Of a DNA stretch of 7,984 bases, positions 1-7,984 are shown one piece after another. The position numbers and the translations under genes are program-made. Position 1 is the stretch's first letter. Every line of letters starts with the position of its first letter. This DNA comes from a virus. Lineage: Duplodnaviria > Heunggongvirae > Uroviricota > Caudoviricetes. The notes beneath the pieces were generated by a model, which was not told the origin of the DNA, ran no database searches, and saw only the letters and a program-made list of their open reading frames with translations. The stretch is taken from IMG/VR virus record IMGVR_UViG_2648501400_000001. One strand, 5' to 3'.

Positions 1-1131
1 CACCACATTACTGCGGTTATAGGTCCACACCTTATCCGATGGCCGGTCCTGCACGAACGTCAGCGTCTGCCCGTTCCATACCGGCATACAGCGCATCGCA
101 GAGCAGAAATCACTGAGCACATCCCACGCCTTACGCTGTGTGGTCAGGTACGCATTACAGGTGATGCGCGGCTCCGTGCCGCCAAAACCGTCCGGCACCG
201 ACTGATCGCAATGCTGGCCGATGACATACAGCGCCCATTTGTCCACATCCGCCGCACCAAGACGTTTCCCCATGCCGTAGCGCGGATGGGTCAGCATATC
301 CCACAGACACCAGGCCATGTTGTTGCTGTATGCTGGCTTAAACGTTCCGTCCCAGATACCGCTGTATTGCCGCGTCTGCGGGTTATAGTTCGACGGCACC
401 TGCAGAATACGCCCGCGCAGATGATAATTACGGCTCACCTGCTGGCTGCCGAACTGCTCCGAGTCCACCTGCACGCCGACCAGTGCCGTGTTCGGGTAGC
501 ACTGTTTCACATCGATGATTTCGGTGTATGACGACCAGAGCGTTTTGTTCTGCAGCTGGTCTGTGGTGCTGTCCGGTGTCATCCTGCGCATCCGTATATT
601 GAACGGGCGCGGCGGCAGGTTACCCACCACCACCGAGGCCAGATACTGCGAGGTGGTTTTGCCCTTAATGGTGATGTCTTTTTCCGTCACCCAGCCACCG
701 TTACGCTGTATCTGAACCAGCAGGCGGACTTCCGACGGATTCCGGTCCCCCTTTGAGGTGGTTTCCACCAGTGCCTGCACACCGAAAGTAAAGCGCAGAC
801 GATCGATGTTTGCCGACGTGATGGTCCGGGTGATCGGCGTGTCATATTTCACTTCCGTACCCAGCACCGTCTCGGAACCGGAGGATTCAAATCCCTCCGG
901 CGGAGTCTGCTCCTGCTCACCGGCCCGGAACACCACCGTGACGCCGGAGATATTGGTATTCCCCTCACTGTCCAGCACCGGCGTACTGTTCAGCAGCACG
1001 CTTTTTAACCCATCCACCGGACCTTCAATCGGCCCTTCGCTGATGGCATCGATCACACTCAGCAACTGCGTGGATTTGAGGTTGTCCTTCGCTTCGCGCG
1101 GGGTATGCCCCTTACTGCTGCCTTTACCCAT
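1..1131 (-). CDS. J: Tail tip / host specificity protein J, N-terminal 377 codons; the 3' end lies beyond the window start
   Basis: Hand translation from the ATG at 1131-1129 gives MGKGSSKGHTPREAKDN..., matching the lambda gpJ N-terminus as I recall it. RBS-like GGAG/GAGGA lies just upstream on the minus strand. The frame is not in the ORF track because it runs off the window; no minus-strand stop is reported across 1-1131. Sits 60 nt downstream of I, as in lambda. Confidence 0.9.
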   Translation of the reverse strand, partial: MGKGSSKGHTPREAKDNLKSTQLLSVIDAISEGPIEGPVDGLKSVLLNSTPVLDSEGNTNISGVTVVFRAGEQEQTPPEGFESSGSETVLGTEVKYDTPITRTITSANIDRLRFTFGVQALVETTSKGDRNPSEVRLLVQIQRNGGWVTEKDITIKGKTTSQYLASVVVGNLPPRPFNIRMRRMTPDSTTDQLQNKTLWSSYTEIIDVKQCYPNTALVGVQVDSEQFGSQQVSRNYHLRGRILQVPSNYNPQTRQYSGIWDGTFKPAYSNNMAWCLWDMLTHPRYGMGKRLGAADVDKWALYVIGQHCDQSVPDGFGGTEPRITCNAYLTTQRKAWDVLSDFCSAMRCMPVWNGQTLTFVQDRPSDKVWTYNRSNVV

Positions 1132-1153
1132 TCCTCACGCTCCATAAACGACA

Positions 1154-1173
1154 AAACCGCCCGCAGGCGGTTT
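1154..1173 (-). terminator. GC-rich hairpin in the I-J intergenic spacer (8-bp stem AAACCGCC/GGCGGTTT, 4-nt loop), followed on the minus strand by a U-rich tract; possible intrinsic terminator/attenuator or mRNA stability element
   Basis: Perfect inverted repeat read directly from the sequence at 1154-1161 and 1166-1173. Minus-strand RNA would be AAACCGCC-UGCG-GGCGGUUU then UUGUCGUUUAUGGAGCGUGAGGA before the J start codon. Confidence 0.3.
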
Positions 1174-1191
1174 CACATAAAACATTTTGTA

Positions 1192-1833
1192 TCAGCGACC
1201 AATCACCACAACCTGACCACCATCCCCTTCGTCTGCCGTGCTGATCTCCTGAGAAACCACCCGCGACCCCACGCGCATTTCACCGTACAGAACGGGCAGA
1301 ACATTGCCCTGGGCAACCATGTTATCCAGTGACGAGAAATACGTGTTCTGCTTACCGTTATCCGTGCTGGTCGTTGTTGCGGTACTGGCTTTCGGTGCCA
1401 ACATCTGTGCAACACCTCCAAGCGTCATCGCCGCGCCCATTGAAAAGAGGATGTCACTAAAAGCGATACTGATCCCCGGCATCCAGATTGCCGTAGCAAT
1501 CAACGCCGCACCCAACACCGCCTGAAAAACACCGCTACTTTTGGCTCCCGCAAGACGCGGAACGATGTGGATCACTGCACCATTTGCCAGCGGCTCACTA
1601 AGACGGGATGATAATTCGTTTTCGCCTGCATCATGCCCGGCAATGCGTACCTGATACCAACCGTCGCTCAGTTTCTGACGAAACGCCGGAAGCTGTGTGG
1701 CCAGCGCCCGGATGGCTTCAGCACCCGTTTTCACACGAAGGTCGATGCGGCGGCCAAATCGTTGTAAATCCCCGTAAAGGCAGATGCGTGCCATGCCCGG
1801 TGACGCCAGAGGGAGTGTGTGCGTCGCTGCCAT
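1192..1833 (-). CDS. I: Tail assembly protein I (213 aa)
   Basis: ORF track 1192..1833. N-terminus MAATHTLPLASPGMARICLYGDLQRFGRRIDLRVKTGAEAIRALATQLPAFRQ and C-terminus TDNGKQNTYFSSLDNMVAQGNVLPVLYGEMRVGSRVVSQEISTADEGDGGQVVVIGR match lambda gpI as recalled. ATG confirmed at 1833-1831. Position between K and J is syntenic with lambda. Confidence 0.9.
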   Translation of the reverse strand: MAATHTLPLASPGMARICLYGDLQRFGRRIDLRVKTGAEAIRALATQLPAFRQKLSDGWYQVRIAGHDAGENELSSRLSEPLANGAVIHIVPRLAGAKSSGVFQAVLGAALIATAIWMPGISIAFSDILFSMGAAMTLGGVAQMLAPKASTATTTSTDNGKQNTYFSSLDNMVAQGNVLPVLYGEMRVGSRVVSQEISTADEGDGGQVVVIGR

Positions 1834-1995
1834 TTGTCGGTATACCTCTCTCGTTTGCTCAGTTGTTCAGGAATATGGTGCAGCAGCTCGCCGTCACCAC
1901 AGTAAATAGCGGCATGATTCGGCACCGATGAACCAAAGCAGCACAGCAGCACATCGCCGGGCGTGCGCCAGAATCGCTGATTCTGTCTCTGTCAT
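1731..1995 (-). pseudogene. K: Tail assembly protein K remnant: N-terminal 14-15 codons (MTETESAILAHARRC, JAB/MPN-type N-terminus) joined out of frame to the C-terminal ~87 codons (His-bearing half of an NlpC/P60-like domain)
   Basis: Only 168 bp separate the L stop (2001) from the I start (1833), so a full K of about 200 aa or more cannot fit. The ATG at 1995-1993 opens a frame that stops after 33 codons at 1896-1894. A second frame, open from 1991 to the stop at 1731-1733, encodes ...RFWRTPGDVLLCCFGSSVPNHAAIYCGDGELLHHIPEQLSKRERYTDKWQRRTHSLWRHRAWHASAFTGIYNDLAAASTFV and overlaps I by 103 bp as the lambda K C-terminus does. The ORF track reports only the GTG-initiated 73-aa piece 1731..1952. 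Confidence 0.65.
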
Positions 1996-2000
1996 GGGAT

Positions 2001-2699
2001 TTACTGCGAAAGTTTGTTAATGGAAAGGAAGCCGCCAAAGTTGCCGACGTTATTGCGAAACTTACAGCCACTCAGGCATTTGCTGCATTTATCCTTCGTG
2101 ATATCGGACGTCGGCTGGTCATATTCATCCGCGACCGCCGGACCGCTATAACCGCACTCATCACCGCGATAGGTCCAGGTACAGGTGTTGGCCAGCATGA
2201 TGCGCCCCGGAAAAACAGCACCATCCGTTTCCGTCGGTGTGGACAACACAAAGGAGGCACTGACCGCGCTCAGTTCGCTGCACTGCTCGATGCGCCAGCG
2301 GCTGATCACCTCCTGCTCCGGATCGGCATCGCTGTTTCCGTTGACGAAGTTCACCGCATCCAGAAAACGGGCGTAAACCTTACGCCTGACCACCGTTCCG
2401 CCGACCAGACTCTGCAGATCTTCCACCATCCCGGTGACCATGCCGTACAGGTTAGAGACTGCCAGCGTGGGGCGCGTACTGGTGCCTTTGCCATTCAGTT
2501 CAAAACCACTCCCCTGAATGGGATACGCCAGATACTGCCGCCCCTGCCAGGTGACCGGCTCACCTTTTTCGTTCTGCTCATTACAGAAAAAATAACGTTC
2601 ACCACCGACCTCTGTCAGATCGATTTCCCAGAGCACCACGCTGGCCGACTGCTCCGCACGGGTGCATTCATTCAGTGTTTCCTGCCGGATATCCTGCAT
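2001..2699 (-). CDS. L: Minor tail protein L (232 aa)
   Basis: ORF track 2001..2699. MQDIRQETLNECTRAEQSASVVLWEIDLTEVGGERYFFCNEQNEKGEPVTWQGRQY... ...CSKCLSGCKFRNNVGNFGGFLSINKLSQ matches lambda gpL as recalled, including the C-terminal Cys cluster. The start ATG shares one base with the M stop (TGATG). Confidence 0.95.
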   Translation of the reverse strand: MQDIRQETLNECTRAEQSASVVLWEIDLTEVGGERYFFCNEQNEKGEPVTWQGRQYLAYPIQGSGFELNGKGTSTRPTLAVSNLYGMVTGMVEDLQSLVGGTVVRRKVYARFLDAVNFVNGNSDADPEQEVISRWRIEQCSELSAVSASFVLSTPTETDGAVFPGRIMLANTCTWTYRGDECGYSGPAVADEYDQPTSDITKDKCSKCLSGCKFRNNVGNFGGFLSINKLSQ

Positions 2700-3028
2700 C
2701 AGTTCACCACCTGTTTAAACTCTGCGCTGAACTCAACACGCAGCATACTGACCCGCGACGTCCATTTTGCGCAGGTCACCTTTATCTGCCGCCAGTCATA
2801 AGGCGGCGTCCACAGAAAGGCTTTCCAGCCTCCGTGCTCTGCCAGAAACGATTCCAGCGCCGTGGCCTCCCAACGGGGGACAGAAATCGTCACGCTGTAC
2901 GTTTTCAGGTTGGCATTCAGCCCGGCAGGCGCGCGCTGGGAGTAACCATCACCAAAGCGCACCTCCCTGACGGAAGGAGTCGAAGCCACATCCATACCCG
3001 GTTTCACTTTCCAGCGGAAGGTTTTCAT
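2699..3028 (-). CDS. M: Minor tail protein M (109 aa)
   Basis: ORF track 2699..3028. MKTFRWKVKPGMDVASTPSVREVRFGDGYSQRAPAGLNANLKTYSVTISVPRWEATALESFLAEHGGWKAFLWTPPYDWRQIKVTCAKWTSRVSMLRVEFSAEFKQVVN is near-identical to lambda gpM as recalled. ATGA overlap with the H stop. Confidence 0.95.
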   Translation of the reverse strand: MKTFRWKVKPGMDVASTPSVREVRFGDGYSQRAPAGLNANLKTYSVTISVPRWEATALESFLAEHGGWKAFLWTPPYDWRQIKVTCAKWTSRVSMLRVEFSAEFKQVVN

Positions 3029-5604
3029 CGTCCACCTCCGGAGAACAGACCACCATCACGCATCTGCCCGGTCACAACATCCATTGCCGCCTTACGGGCT
3101 ACGTCATAAACCGCCTTCAGCGCCTGTGGCCCTATCTGACCGTTCGTGCCGTCGTTGTTAATCACCACATGGTTATTCTGCTCAAACTTCCCGGACGCCT
3201 GCGACCGACTGTCCGCCATGCTGCCCGGTGTACCGACATAACCGCCGGTGGCATAGCCGCGCATCAGCCGGTAAAGATTCCCCACGCCAATCCGGCTGGT
3301 TGCCTCCTTCGTGAAGACAAATTCACCACGGTGAACAATCCCCGCTGGCTCATATTTGCCGCCGGTTCCCGTAAATCCTCCGGTCGCAAAATGGAGTTTC
3401 GCCGCAGCGGCCTGAATGGCTGCACCACCTGACGCTGATGAGCCGCCACCGGTAGCACCTCCAATGGCGCTGCCGATACTCCCGACAATCCCCACCATTG
3501 CCTGCTTAAGCAGAATTTCTGTCATCATGGACAGCACGGAACGGGTGAAGCTGCGCCAGTTCTGTTCACTGCCGGTCAGCATCGCCGCCATATTCTGTGC
3601 AATACCATCAAAGGTCTGCGTGGCTGCACTTTTAACCTGCGACATACTGTCCGTGGCGCTCTCTTCCCACTCACTCCAGCCGGACTTCAGGCCTGCCATC
3701 CAGCTCCCACGAAGCTGGTCTTCAGCCGCCCAGGTCTTTTTCTGCTCTGACATGACGTTATTCAGCGCCAGCGGATTATCGCCATACTCCTCCTTCAGGC
3801 GCTGTTCCGTGCCTTCCCGTTCTGCCTGCCGGTCAGTCAGCCCCCGGCTTTTCGCATCAATGGCGGCCCGTTTTGCCCGTTGCTGCTGTGCGAATTTATC
3901 CGCCTGCTGCGCCAGCGCGTTCAGGTGCTCCTGATACGTAACCTTGTCGCCAAGTGCAGCCAGCTGGCGCTTGTACTCCAGCGTCTCATCTTTATGCGCC
4001 AGCAGGGATTTCTCCTGTGCAGACAGCTGGCGACGTTGCGCCGCCTCCTCCAGTACCGCGAACTGATTCTCCGCCTTCCACAAATCCCGGCGCTGCTGGC
4101 TGATTTTCTCATTCGCTCCGGCATGCTTCTCCAGCGTCCGGAGTTCTGCCTGAAGCGTCAGAAGGGCAGCATGAGCACTGTCTTCCTGACGATCGCCCGC
4201 AGACACCTTCACGCCGGAGTGCTTCGGCTTTTTCAGCGTCGCTTCATAGTCCTTTTTCGCCGCCGCCATCAGCGTGTTGTAATCTGCCTGCAGGATTTTC
4301 CCGTCCTTCAGTGCCTTGTTCAGTTCTTCCTGACGGGCGGTATATTTCTCCAGCGGCGTCTGCAGGCGTTCGTAAGCCTTCTGCGCCTCTTCGGTATATT
4401 TCAGCCGTGATGCCTCAGAGTCGGCCCAGTCCTTTGCTGCCATCTCTCTGGCCTTTTCAAGATCGGCCTGCAACGTGGCGGCTGAAAGCCCAAGTTGCGC
4501 ATTCGCTCTGTCCTCCCATGCTCCACGGAGATTGGCAAGAAATGCTGAGGTTTTACCGCGCCGGTGGCTTCGGCTCTGATACCACTGCCATTTTTTATCC
4601 GCTTCATCAAAAGCCTTTTCAGCTTTGGCGAGCATATCTGCAGAGGAGTCCGGGCGGCCAATATCCAGCACCGCATCCCACATGGATTTGAATGCCTGTG
4701 CAGTCTTGTCAGCCCAGGTCTCCAGCGTACCCATGTTCTCTTTCAGGCGGCGGGTCTGGTCATCAAACCCTTTCGTTGCGGCCTCGTTCGCCGCCTGCAA
4801 CGCCCCGGCCCCATCGCCGGAACGCTGCAACTGAGCAACATACGCAATCTGTTCCGCCGTCACGTTATGGAACTGGCGCGCCATCGCCGTCAACCCAGAC
4901 GTCGGGTCAGTGGTCAGCTTCCCGAAGGCTTCAGCGACCTTGTCCACCTCCACGCCGGATGCAGAGGAGAAACGCGCCACACTCTGGCTGATTGCCTCAA
5001 ACTGCTCACCACCACGCACACCGGCATTCACCAGCGCCGTCAGTGACTCGCTGGTCTGGTTAAACGTCAGCCCTGCCGCCTGCCCGGATCTGGACAGGGC
5101 CAGCATACGATCTGCCGTCAGTCCCGCCTGATTACCGGAAAGGACCAGCGTTTTGTTGAAATTAGACAGGGTTGAGTCACCCTGATACCAGGCATACGCC
5201 AGCGCACCGGTCGCCACCGCTAGCGAAGTGATACCAACCATCGGCAGGGTGATCGCACCGGCAAGCCCCCTGAACATGGGGATCATCCCGCCGAAGGAGT
5301 CCTTCACCTGACCGCCCTGTTGCAGCAGGATCAGCCACGGACTTTGCCCGCCTGCAAGCTGCGTGGCCACGTCGGTGAACTGCGCAGGCAGCATACGCAT
5401 GGCAGCTTTATACTGCCCGACGGAAATCCCCGCTTTCTGTGCAGCCAGCGCCTGTCGGTTCATCGACTGTTCAACGACTGCCGCTGTTTTTTTCGCATCA
5501 CTTTCCGTACCGGAAAAATGACGCCTGACTCTGGCCATCTGCTCGTCAAATCTGGCCGCATCCAGACTCAAATCAACGACCAGATCACCTACCGGTTCAG
5601 CCAT
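3025..5604 (-). CDS. H: Tail tape measure protein (859 aa)
   Basis: ORF track 3025..5604. Long alpha-helical, charge-rich central region (ADLEKAREMAAKDWADSEASRLKYTEEAQKAYERL...) and a Gly-rich hydrophobic C-terminal segment (VGIVGSIGSAIGGATGGGSSASGGAAIQAAAAKLHFATGGFTGTGG) typical of lambda gpH. Strong SD (AGGAGGAG) precedes the ATG at 5604. Sits between G-T and M as in lambda; the length is close to the 853 aa I recall for lambda gpH. Confidence 0.95.
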   Translation of the reverse strand: MAEPVGDLVVDLSLDAARFDEQMARVRRHFSGTESDAKKTAAVVEQSMNRQALAAQKAGISVGQYKAAMRMLPAQFTDVATQLAGGQSPWLILLQQGGQVKDSFGGMIPMFRGLAGAITLPMVGITSLAVATGALAYAWYQGDSTLSNFNKTLVLSGNQAGLTADRMLALSRSGQAAGLTFNQTSESLTALVNAGVRGGEQFEAISQSVARFSSASGVEVDKVAEAFGKLTTDPTSGLTAMARQFHNVTAEQIAYVAQLQRSGDGAGALQAANEAATKGFDDQTRRLKENMGTLETWADKTAQAFKSMWDAVLDIGRPDSSADMLAKAEKAFDEADKKWQWYQSRSHRRGKTSAFLANLRGAWEDRANAQLGLSAATLQADLEKAREMAAKDWADSEASRLKYTEEAQKAYERLQTPLEKYTARQEELNKALKDGKILQADYNTLMAAAKKDYEATLKKPKHSGVKVSAGDRQEDSAHAALLTLQAELRTLEKHAGANEKISQQRRDLWKAENQFAVLEEAAQRRQLSAQEKSLLAHKDETLEYKRQLAALGDKVTYQEHLNALAQQADKFAQQQRAKRAAIDAKSRGLTDRQAEREGTEQRLKEEYGDNPLALNNVMSEQKKTWAAEDQLRGSWMAGLKSGWSEWEESATDSMSQVKSAATQTFDGIAQNMAAMLTGSEQNWRSFTRSVLSMMTEILLKQAMVGIVGSIGSAIGGATGGGSSASGGAAIQAAAAKLHFATGGFTGTGGKYEPAGIVHRGEFVFTKEATSRIGVGNLYRLMRGYATGGYVGTPGSMADSRSQASGKFEQNNHVVINNDGTNGQIGPQALKAVYDVARKAAMDVVTGQMRDGGLFSGGGR

Positions 5605-6435
5605 ACCGGACTCCTCCTGCGATCCCTTCTGATACTGTCATCAGCATTACGTCATCCTCCGTCATGTCCGCCACATCCGGGGAAGCGGGGATAACTTCAT
5701 TCCCGTCAGGGCCAAAACGAACGCCTCCGGCAAGCCCTGCCGCTTTCTGCATCAGCACATCATCTTCAGGCTCTTCGTCAGCCTCACGCCGGCTCAGCAG
5801 ACTGAAATCCAGCGGATGCATATCCGGATCGCTGAAAAACAGGCTGAGCACGGTGTACGTCAGCCCGGAAAAGTGCATATCCAGCAGAACATCATGAAAA
5901 TAATGGGTACTGTAAAAGCGGTGCCAGTCGGCATACTCCGTGGATGACATCCCGGCAAGCATGGCGCGCCAGTCGGGTCGCCCCATCTCACGCGCCAGTT
6001 TCAGGGCAAAACTCAGCTCACCGTCGAACACTTTCCCGCAGAAACAGGCTCTGCAGGCCCGGCGTCATCTGTCTGTTCAGGGGCATTATTCACAACAAAC
6101 TCAGACATTCCGGACAGACGTAACACCACGTTTTCAGCCTGAGCAATTGCCTCCGTGGGCCAGGTGGTAAGCACTTCCTGCTCAATCTGCGTAATGGCTT
6201 CATTCATGGACGGCAGCTTTGTTTTCTGCGGATGGTTATGCCACAGAGACATCGCCACCAGAAACGCCCCGCCTCTGATAAGATCCTCTACAGACACCTG
6301 CAGGTTGCCACTGGATTCAGCCTTTTTTTCCTGCTCTTTCAACCAGGCAAGATGCTCAATACGCTGCAGGGCTGACAGTTCAGAAAGCGTGACGGTCACG
6401 CCGTTATGTTCAAATGATTCGGTTTTCAGGAACAT
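5597..6435 (-). CDS. GT: Tail assembly chaperone fusion G-T, made by a programmed -1 ribosomal frameshift from the G frame into the T frame at 6037-6031; the T-frame segment runs 6031..5597
   Basis: The T-frame ORF (track 5597..6031, 144 codons, ...FDGELSFALKLAREMGRPDWRAMLAGMSSTEYADWHRFYSTHYFHDVLLDMHFSGLTY...) has no independent start. It begins at a GTG inside the slippery site in the -1 frame relative to G and ends 2 nt before the H start. This is the lambda G/gpGT arrangement. Confidence 0.85.
6013..6435 (-). CDS. G: Tail assembly chaperone G (140 aa)
   Basis: ORF track 6013..6435. MFLKTESFEHNGVTVTLSELSALQRIEHLAWLKEQ... ...VVNNAPEQTDDAGPAEPVSAGKCSTVS matches lambda gpG as recalled. GGAGAG RBS in the 15-nt spacer after V. 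Confidence 0.9.
   Translation of the reverse strand: MFLKTESFEHNGVTVTLSELSALQRIEHLAWLKEQEKKAESSGNLQVSVEDLIRGGAFLVAMSLWHNHPQKTKLPSMNEAITQIEQEVLTTWPTEAIAQAENVVLRLSGMSEFVVNNAPEQTDDAGPAEPVSAGKCSTVS
6031..6037 (-). promoter_or_regulatory. Programmed -1 ribosomal frameshift slippery heptamer G GGA AAG (plus strand reads ctttccc) near the 3' end of G
   Basis: Read directly: plus 6031-6037 is CTTTCCC, the reverse complement of GGGAAAG. In the G frame the codons are GGA-AAG (Gly-Lys of ...AGKCSTVS*); a -1 slip reads GGG-AAA-GTG-TTC-GAC and enters the T frame. Confidence 0.8.
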
Positions 6436-6450
6436 CGCTGACTCTCCGGA

Positions 6451-7191
6451 TTAGCTGTCGGTGACGTTGATTTCTGCAACCGCAGCAAACTCACCATTAC
6501 CGGATACGACCGGAATGTTGACCTTGCCTGCAGCAACGCCCTTCACGGTGATGGTCATACCACTGACCGACACGGTGGCTTTTGTTTTATCCGCTGACAC
6601 CGCACGGAAGCTCTTGTCGGTTGCGCCTTCCGGCTGGAATGCCACGGTCAGCGTGGTGCTCTGCCCTTTCACTACGGAAGCACTGGCTGGCGTTACCGTC
6701 ATGCCGGTTGCCGCTGTCACCGTGCTGCGATCTTCTGCCATTGACGGACGGCCCACATTGGTGACCTTCACCGTACGGGTGATCACTTCCTTCGCCGTCA
6801 CTGCCTTACCGATACTGCTGACCCAGCCACGGAACACATCGACCGTGCCGTTCGGGAAGCGGATTTTATAGGCACGGGTATCGCCTTCATTAAACCACGC
6901 CAGCAGCGCCTGCTGCCCCTGCTCTCCGGGCATCCACGCCAGCGTGAAGCTGGTATCTCCGGCGGATTTCTGCCCCTGCCCGGTCGCGGCCCAGTCCGGA
7001 TCTTCATCATCGAGATAACTGTCGTCATAGGACTCTGCGGTCAGTTCGCCGGGCGTCAGTTCTTTAACTTTTGCCAGACGCGACCAGTCAACGTCTGAAA
7101 GCGGGTTCGCATAAGGGTCACCGTTCCCCTTATAAACCCACAGGGTGGTCCCGGCCCCTTTCACCGGTGCCAGAGGATTTGGTGTTGGCAT
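6451..7191 (-). CDS. V: Major tail tube protein V (246 aa from the second ATG), with a C-terminal Ig-like (Big_2-type) domain
   Basis: ORF track 6451..7221. I place the start at the ATG at 7191-7189 ([42 protein letters not shown]...). That ATG is preceded by TGAGGA, lies 7 nt after the U stop, and corresponds to the lambda gpV N-terminus. The ATG at 7221 would add 10 residues and overlap U. Confidence 0.9.
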
Positions 7192-7198
7192 ATCGTCC

Positions 7199-7594
7199 TC
7201 ACATTTCATAGGTAATGACATAAGTCAGATCGGCTGAACTCCACAGGCCCGCATCATCGTCGCGCCGGTAGTCATAGCCACTGGCCACCATACTGGTGAT
7301 CAAATCTGACAGTGCCGGGATATCGCTCATCACCGGATAAATCCGGGACTCCATCCACGCATCCAGCTCTGAATCCGGCACCTGAGCAGGCAGGAAAACT
7401 TCAATATGCAGCTCCGCCTGCCAGGTATCGCTGTCCAGCTCTTCGCCCGTGTATTCAGCGCCGGTGAGATAAACGGCAACTGCCGGAAAATCCGCCTCAT
7501 CAAAAACAGCGGGGCGACCATCAAAAAGCGTCGCCCCGGTGTCATGCTTCTCCAGTGCATCCAGTACGGCTGCACGGAGTTCAGTATGTTTCAT
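7199..7594 (-). CDS. U: Tail terminator / tail completion protein U (131 aa)
   Basis: ORF track 7199..7594. [131 protein letters not shown] matches lambda gpU as recalled. The start ATG overlaps the Z stop (ATGA). Confidence 0.95.
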
Positions 7595-7893
7595 CGCTTT
7601 ATCGCAATCCTCAGTTGTTGTTTCAGGGCGTATTCCAGTTCTTTCGGCAAACGTTCACGCCGTATCTGTTCAATATTCTGTTTAAACGCCGTGGTCAGCG
7701 GCACCGCCATCGGGATTTTCACCACATCAATGGGGTAACGGTTTTTCCCGGCCACACGCTGCATGACATGCCAGCGACCATTTTTTAATCGCTGGATAAA
7801 TGCCCGCTGATAACGATGCTGACCGGCCCGTAGCGTACTGTTGGGACGACTTCCGGTGATCCGTATGATTAGACTTGAGATAAATGGTAAGCG
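7591..7893 (-). pseudogene. Z: Minor tail protein Z, 3' portion only (about 100 codons of open frame; 5' half absent)
   Basis: Hand translation of the minus frame ending at the TGA at 7593-7591 gives ...[71 protein letters not shown], matching the lambda gpZ C-terminus as recalled. An in-frame TGA at 7896-7894 closes the frame upstream. The first in-frame start candidate is the ATG at 7764, giving at most 57 aa, which is why the ORF track lists nothing here. Lambda gpZ is about 190 aa. Confidence 0.6.
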
Positions 7894-7919
7894 TCAACGG
7901 AGCACCGTATTGACGCTTA
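7888..7919. other. Perfect 10-bp inverted repeat (TAAGCGTCAA ... TTGACGCTTA) with a 12-nt loop at the boundary between the Z remnant and unrelated upstream sequence; possible terminator-like hairpin or recombination junction
   Basis: Read directly from the sequence: 7888-7897 taagcgtcaa, 7910-7919 ttgacgctta. A T-rich tract (TTTATT) follows on the plus strand and ATTTAT on the minus strand. Confidence 0.4.
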
Positions 7920-7984
7920 TTTATTGGTGAGTACTACGTTCCATGGCAGGAGTTCATCAACTCGGTTGGAAGGCCATTCCGGCA
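7917..7984 (-). CDS. 3' end of an unidentified minus-strand ORF (...PEWPSNRVDELLPWNVVLTNK*), not recognisable as a lambda tail or head gene
   Basis: Hand translation: the frame is open from the window edge to the TAA at 7919-7917. Too short to judge whether it is really coding; its stop lies inside the right arm of the hairpin. Confidence 0.25.
   Translation of the reverse strand, partial: PEWPSNRVDELLPWNVVLTNK

Follow-up and report, generated by a model that had tools for sequence, protein, structure and literature searches.

The tail assembly protein gpK (TAPK) of phage lambda, encoded between L and I, is needed for tail assembly (PMC12617516), a requirement that the first-pass annotation of the DNA described here had already assumed. 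The protein is absent from virions and hence is an assembly factor (PMC10721106). It is composed of a JAB and an NlpC/P60 domain and is paired with the ubiquitin-like gpI (PMC10721106, PMC12617516, PMC1779556); this architecture of K, described by Iyer et al. 2006 (PMC1779556), matches that of the intact K genes in our comparisons. The locus analysed here occupies the same slot between L and I and is 100% identical, at the nucleotide level, to both ends of the K gene of a near-identical prophage segment (L009, GCA_018158635.1). Unlike lambda gpK, it is devoid of codons 16-175/176, of the JAMM motif, of the catalytic Cys and of a continuous open reading frame. It is a pseudogene derived from the gpK family, not a functional member of it, and very probably the product of a single recent 479-bp deletion between 10-bp repeats in a lambda-type K gene.

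Spontaneous deletions between short direct repeats are well known in E. coli, classically from lacI spectra, and form by RecA-independent slipped-strand mispairing or by microhomology-mediated end joining. The lesion described below resembles them in that its endpoints lie in a 10-bp repeat (13/14 when extended), one copy is kept and an interval of a few hundred bp is lost; no feature of it sets it apart from such deletions. The locus also resembles the cryptic lambdoid prophages of E. coli, with their IS insertions and late-gene deletions, since Z is truncated, K is deleted and the other tail genes are pristine, although its decay is at a very early stage, with one SNP over 7.9 kb when compared with an intact relative; the remainder of the prophage lies off this contig.

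The window, that is, the whole stretch of DNA analysed (7,984 bp), is the entire contig JHSW01000106.1 of the draft assembly GCA_001266175.1, which is short-read in style. Both ends of the contig lie in repeats, an IS66 element on one side and J on the other. The minus strand carries a lambda-type tail module in the order Z', U, V, G, T, H, M, L, K remnant, I, J', belonging to a decaying, defective prophage in a draft Enterobacteriaceae assembly that is almost certainly E. coli. The features are as follows, the K remnant being described by comparison with the K genes of the isolated phage mEp460 and of L009.

1-1131, minus strand: 5' part of J, 377 codons, the frame open from ATG 1131 to window position 1; a gene call in L015 and L021.
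1192-1833, minus strand: I, intact, 213 aa from its first ATG (1833).
1731-1995, minus strand: K pseudogene, 265 bp of a 744-bp gene, with 479 bp missing relative to mEp460 and L009.
1731-1952, minus strand: out-of-frame 3' part of K, codons 175-247, present in the ORF list as a 73-aa ORF with a GTG start; overlaps I.
1894-1995, minus strand: frameshifted ORF of 33 codons, from ATG 1995, six bases past the L stop, to TGA 1896-1894.
1949-1995, minus strand: 5' stub of K, identical to nt 1-47 of L009 K.
1949-1958, minus strand: junction, the sole surviving copy of the 10-bp direct repeat GGCGATGTGC, located by comparison with L009.
2001-2699, minus strand: L, intact, 232 aa, directly upstream of the K remnant, with a TAA stop at 2003-2001.
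Between L and T, minus strand: M (109 aa) and H (859 aa).
Between H and the Z remnant, minus strand: T (144-aa ORF), G (140 aa), V and U (131 aa).
7591-7764, minus strand: Z remnant, an ORF of 57 C-terminal codons matching PF06763 (Minor_tail_Z).
7867-7984, minus strand: terminal part of an ISEc23-like element of the IS66 family, with the 3' end of tnpC and the terminus; none of the relatives is homologous beyond 7866.

The remnant is flanked by L and I and overlaps the latter with its 3' end, as lambda gpK/TAPK does. The ORF map places the L stop, the 33-codon frame from ATG 1995 and the frame ending in STFV* and overlapping I exactly where the first-pass annotation had put them. The short gap that it reported between L and I also stands, though not its figure of 168 nt: 167 nt (1834-2000) lie between the stop of L and the start of I. 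Instead of one uninterrupted ORF of some 247 codons (199 in the lambda annotation), the locus has the 33-codon ORF followed by an out-of-frame 73-codon piece. The 5' stub contributes the start codon, 15 native codons (MTETESAILAHARRC) and two bases of codon 16, so that the 33-codon ORF consists of 15 K residues followed by 18 out-of-frame residues (AAVLLWFIGAESCRYLLW); a Pfam search with it found no match. The 73-codon frame carries ...PGDVLLCCFGSSVPNHAAIYCGDGELLHHIPEQ...STFV*, stops at 1731 and runs over the start of I (ATG 1833). Its Pfam match covers only positions 60-105 of the 105 in the NLPC_P60 profile, with 23.8 bits against a cut-off of 23, and of NlpC/P60 it retains just the C-terminal part with the His. 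Its GTG is not preceded by any visible Shine-Dalgarno-like sequence.

We searched for intact counterparts with megablast, using window positions 1400-2400 as the query against phage records and 5,426 complete E. coli genomes. Every match among the best 30 of each collection (phage and E. coli) aligned in two pieces. Among the matches listed, those from E. coli that covered query positions 1-999 spanned about 1,477 bp, some 479 bp beyond the query, and those from phages showed an equal extra length once their shorter query coverage was allowed for. The extra DNA is annotated as 'tail tip assembly protein K / C40 family peptidase'. In the isolated phage mEp460, a K gene of 744 bp (247 aa) lies between L and I, and the two pieces of the remnant differ from it by few mismatches. 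A protein identical to the L of the window is indexed in 311 blocks of the collection, and in all ten contigs shown it is adjoined by a 744-bp K, the gene call being 247 aa or, with an internal start, 199 aa. The 247 codons are open in each of the 13 natural K genes aligned. In Pfam, the intact protein contains Prok-JAB (PF14464) at residues 4-98 and NLPC_P60 (PF00877) at residues 111-224. As for contigs with an identical I protein, K is intact in L016, L017 is rearranged in a different way, and L018-L020 begin downstream of the junction.

The direct comparison, anchored from the left and from the right, was made with mEp460 and then with L009. The best complete E. coli match (L001, NZ_CP039404.1 1696933-1704408) was dropped as a reference because it is full of frameshifted CDSs. 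PGAP flags H, M, K, I and J in that genome as 'frameshifted', which looks like an assembly-level indel error and not biology. Positions 834-9178 of L009, an independent assembly, align with window positions 1-7866, and they differ by one SNP (window 2601, in L) and by the K deletion, and by nothing else. The SNP is synonymous, since the L proteins are identical, and downstream of the junction there are zero mismatches. The prophage tail module thus circulates nearly unchanged among different isolates.

The K remnant corresponds to nt 1-47 plus nt 517-744 of L009 K, with zero mismatches; its likeness to K is no accident. Exactly 479 bases are lost, and 479 mod 3 = 2. The two frames are thus parts of one ancestral K ORF, as the first-pass annotation had proposed; a single gap, not a multiple of three, accounts for the whole difference, which bears out its frameshifting internal deletion, and the loss falls at the top of its estimate of 350-480 bp. 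It had placed the meeting of the frames at 1948-1962 and had suggested looking for a short direct repeat at the breakpoints in an intact sequence. Such a repeat is present. The sequence GGCGATGTGC occurs in L009 K at nt 38-47 and at nt 517-526, the starts being 479 bp apart, and it is the longest direct repeat in K. If extended, the two copies read GCCCGGCGATGTGC and GCCGGGCGATGTGC and agree at 13/14 positions. Both breakpoints, placed with single-base precision, lie in this repeat of the ancestral K and one copy is kept at the junction, where the perfect repeat occupies 1949-1958 and the extended imperfect form, GCCCGGCGATGTGC, spans 1949-1962. When random deletions in K were simulated, a junction microhomology of at least 10 bp was obtained in 4 of 200,000 cases (2e-5). 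A search for inverted repeats returned one weak 19-nt pair, 79% complementary, which overlaps the left repeat.

Since the breakpoints sit in a repeat of K and the microhomology is above chance, the lesion is a classic short-direct-repeat deletion. It removed one of the two copies together with the 469 bp in between, and its likely route is slipped-strand mispairing in replication or a microhomology-mediated repair of a break. Replication slippage and break repair leave an identical product, from which the route is not readable. The loss of 479 bp shifts the reading frame of K and takes away codons 16-175/176.

The deleted codons include the Glu19 of JAB (ESCG), the JAMM motif HSHPGGLPWLSEAD (residues 68-81) and Cys121 (DCYT). 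The Prok-JAB domain with its JAMM motif (Glu, HxHx7SxxD) is therefore missing, only residues 4-15 of JAB surviving, and so is a complete NlpC/P60 domain with its catalytic Cys, of which the surviving profile positions 60-105 are out of frame with the start codon. The earlier suggestion that most of JAB (here H68-D81 of the JAMM motif) and the Cys-bearing half of NlpC/P60 had been lost agrees with this. Because the frameshift is combined with loss of the whole JAB/JAMM metalloprotease core and of the catalytic-Cys half of NlpC/P60, this locus cannot give a functional K product.

The sequence annotated in lambda itself deserves a comment. The reference record (NC_001416) annotates a K of 199 aa, without the first 48 codons. 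Within the region compared (L024, NC_001416 13300-15600), the record has, at about 834-977 of the locus, one base fewer than the 13 natural 247-codon K genes: the site reads GGAGGC-TATTTCC in lambda and GGAGGCGTATTTCC in the natural genes. The first 45 K codons of lambda (MTQTESAILAHARRCAPAESCGF..., including the conserved JAB Glu) are consequently out of frame with the annotated K. This one-base loss is either an error of the reference record or a real mutation of laboratory lambda. Given the 199-aa K of lambda, the N-terminal portion of JAB is perhaps not strictly required. The deletion in the window takes the start codon of the 199-aa form as well, and 126 of its 199 residues.

We then asked how widespread the junction is. 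An exact scan with the 26-nt junction gave no match in GTDB species-representative genomes, IMG/VR and JGI metagenome contigs, and a 35-nt junction probe gave none in 5,426 complete E. coli genomes, 50,697 phage records and 72,556 plasmids. Since neither half of the 35-nt probe reaches the megablast word length, a score requires a true junction. As a control, run because one half of the junction is TGC-rich, the probe was used under default low-complexity masking and found the window (E = 3.6e-9 at 28 Gb); it gave no match to intact K. The pair of flanks, by contrast, has 9,922 matching places in 4,336 E. coli genomes. Two contigs with exact matches to the 73-aa ORF (L013 and L014) were rejected as further cases, as they do not contain the junction: there the ORF stems from extra copies of K-3'/I-5' or from the end of a contig. 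The junction is private to the assembly of the window, the one assembly known to carry it, and the contig is reported in two samples, one of which is named. The lesion is recent, indeed very recent, since a single SNP in 7.9 kb separates the window from its intact sibling, and the deletion is not a recurrent hotspot.

A junction seen in no other genome or metagenome searched could have been made by an assembler or by a chimeric library molecule, K being intact in the source, in a region of which several lambdoid prophages have copies. The window makes up the whole of a short draft contig that ends in repeats, and several near-identical L-K-I regions are usual in E. coli genomes, which complicates assembly. 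However, the two sides share only 10 exact bases (13/14), which should be far below the k-mer and overlap lengths of assemblers, and a stretch of 10-14 shared bases would not be expected to make an assembler connect two sequences. The flanks are, both of them, 100% identical to a single relative, L009, so that the contig is not a chimera of two prophage types. The breakpoints also coincide exactly with the longest direct repeat of K, as is typical of deletions that form biologically between short repeats, and the contig is reported from two samples. We thus consider it unlikely that the gap is an artefact.

A real deletion might instead have arisen by unequal recombination, that is, by a RecA-dependent homeologous exchange between co-resident lambdoid prophages or between sister chromosomes. 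Exchange does occur here, as L013 and L017 have rearranged K-3'/I-5' segments of mixed sequence type. At L013 5372-6768 an intact K is followed by two extra K-3'/I-5' copies of a different sequence type and then by a full I, and in L017 1-1477 an I-5' fragment precedes K from nt 490, which is followed by I; such segments suggest that co-resident lambdoid prophages have exchanged DNA repeatedly where K and I overlap. Both flanks of the window junction are, nevertheless, of one sequence type, identical to L009, and none of the breakpoints of L013 or L017 coincides with it. RecA-mediated recombination normally needs far more shared sequence than the 10-14 nt found at the junction. We regard this origin as quite improbable and retain a short-repeat deletion as the source of the remnant.

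It could also be argued that the locus is a natural form of K, and that a minimal K, or K fragments translated separately, would suffice in some lambdoid phages. The C-terminal frame of 73 codons is open from its GTG, the annotated K of lambda is without the first 48 codons, and Iyer et al. 2006 (PMC1779556) described prophages with an NlpC/P60-only K; yet those authors suggest that such forms are degenerate prophage variants. The short architecture, which the first-pass annotation had named as the observation that would speak against a deletion, was sought in the phage and other genomes searched and none was found: the junction is present in no phage record and in 0 of the 9,922 matching places of complete E. 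coli genomes. In addition, the 73-aa piece has no catalytic Cys, its Pfam score is marginal and confined to the last 46 of 105 profile positions, and no Shine-Dalgarno-like sequence precedes its GTG. Since the near-identical L009 does not have the frameshift, there has been no time for adaptation to a short K; the comparison with L009 largely refutes a functional short K, to which we give almost no credence. Programmed frameshifting or recoding was rejected, as what brings the two frames together is a loss of 479 bp, seen against a relative otherwise identical across K and its flanks.

The second lesion lies at the other end of the module, where an IS66-family element takes the place of the first ~86 codons of Z; 118 nt into this element the contig stops. 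The segment 7867-7984 is 92-100% identical to annotated ends of ISEc23/IS66-family transposases in more than 4,400 genomes, the matched annotation, 'IS66-like element ISEc23 family transposase', being found in thousands of E. coli records. Z measures 177-192 aa in the relatives. Apart from the source, the IS-truncated Z ORF was found only in L022, a metagenome contig of 526 bp that is too short to reach K. The prophage is damaged in at least two tail genes, Z and K, in keeping with the ordinary decay of prophages.

L, I and J are unaffected by the K deletion and keep their own translation signals; the Shine-Dalgarno-like GAGAGG of I is left untouched. A strong polar effect on I and J would not be expected, because the frameshifted ORF ends about 60 nt upstream of the I start. 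By analogy with lambda genetics, worked out in a phage other than that of the window, a tail module null for K would assemble no tails unless K came in trans. E. coli genomes that have an L-K-I region carry a median of 2 and up to 13 of them, so that complementation by a co-resident lambdoid prophage supplying K is plausible. That the K-less module is tolerated or maintained by K supplied in trans, or that the K repeat pair is a recurrent deletion hotspot, seems to us very doubtful. As K is a non-structural assembly factor, the first of these readings is conceivable: the element would then be a 'tail cassette' that depends on another prophage, and its L, I and J proteins would still enter mixed tails. 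Under the second, the repeat pair would turn tail production off in some lineages.

The type of event is already well understood: the pseudogenisation of a prophage late gene by a deletion between short direct repeats, together with an IS hit, is ordinary decay. With regard to the function of gpK, the lesion neither opens nor closes any question, and its value is one of annotation. The appropriate label for the locus is K pseudogene of a defective prophage, and tools for prophage prediction should not count the tail module of the window as intact. It provides a tidy, resolved case of late-gene inactivation, one SNP away from its intact ancestor and beside an IS66 hit in Z.
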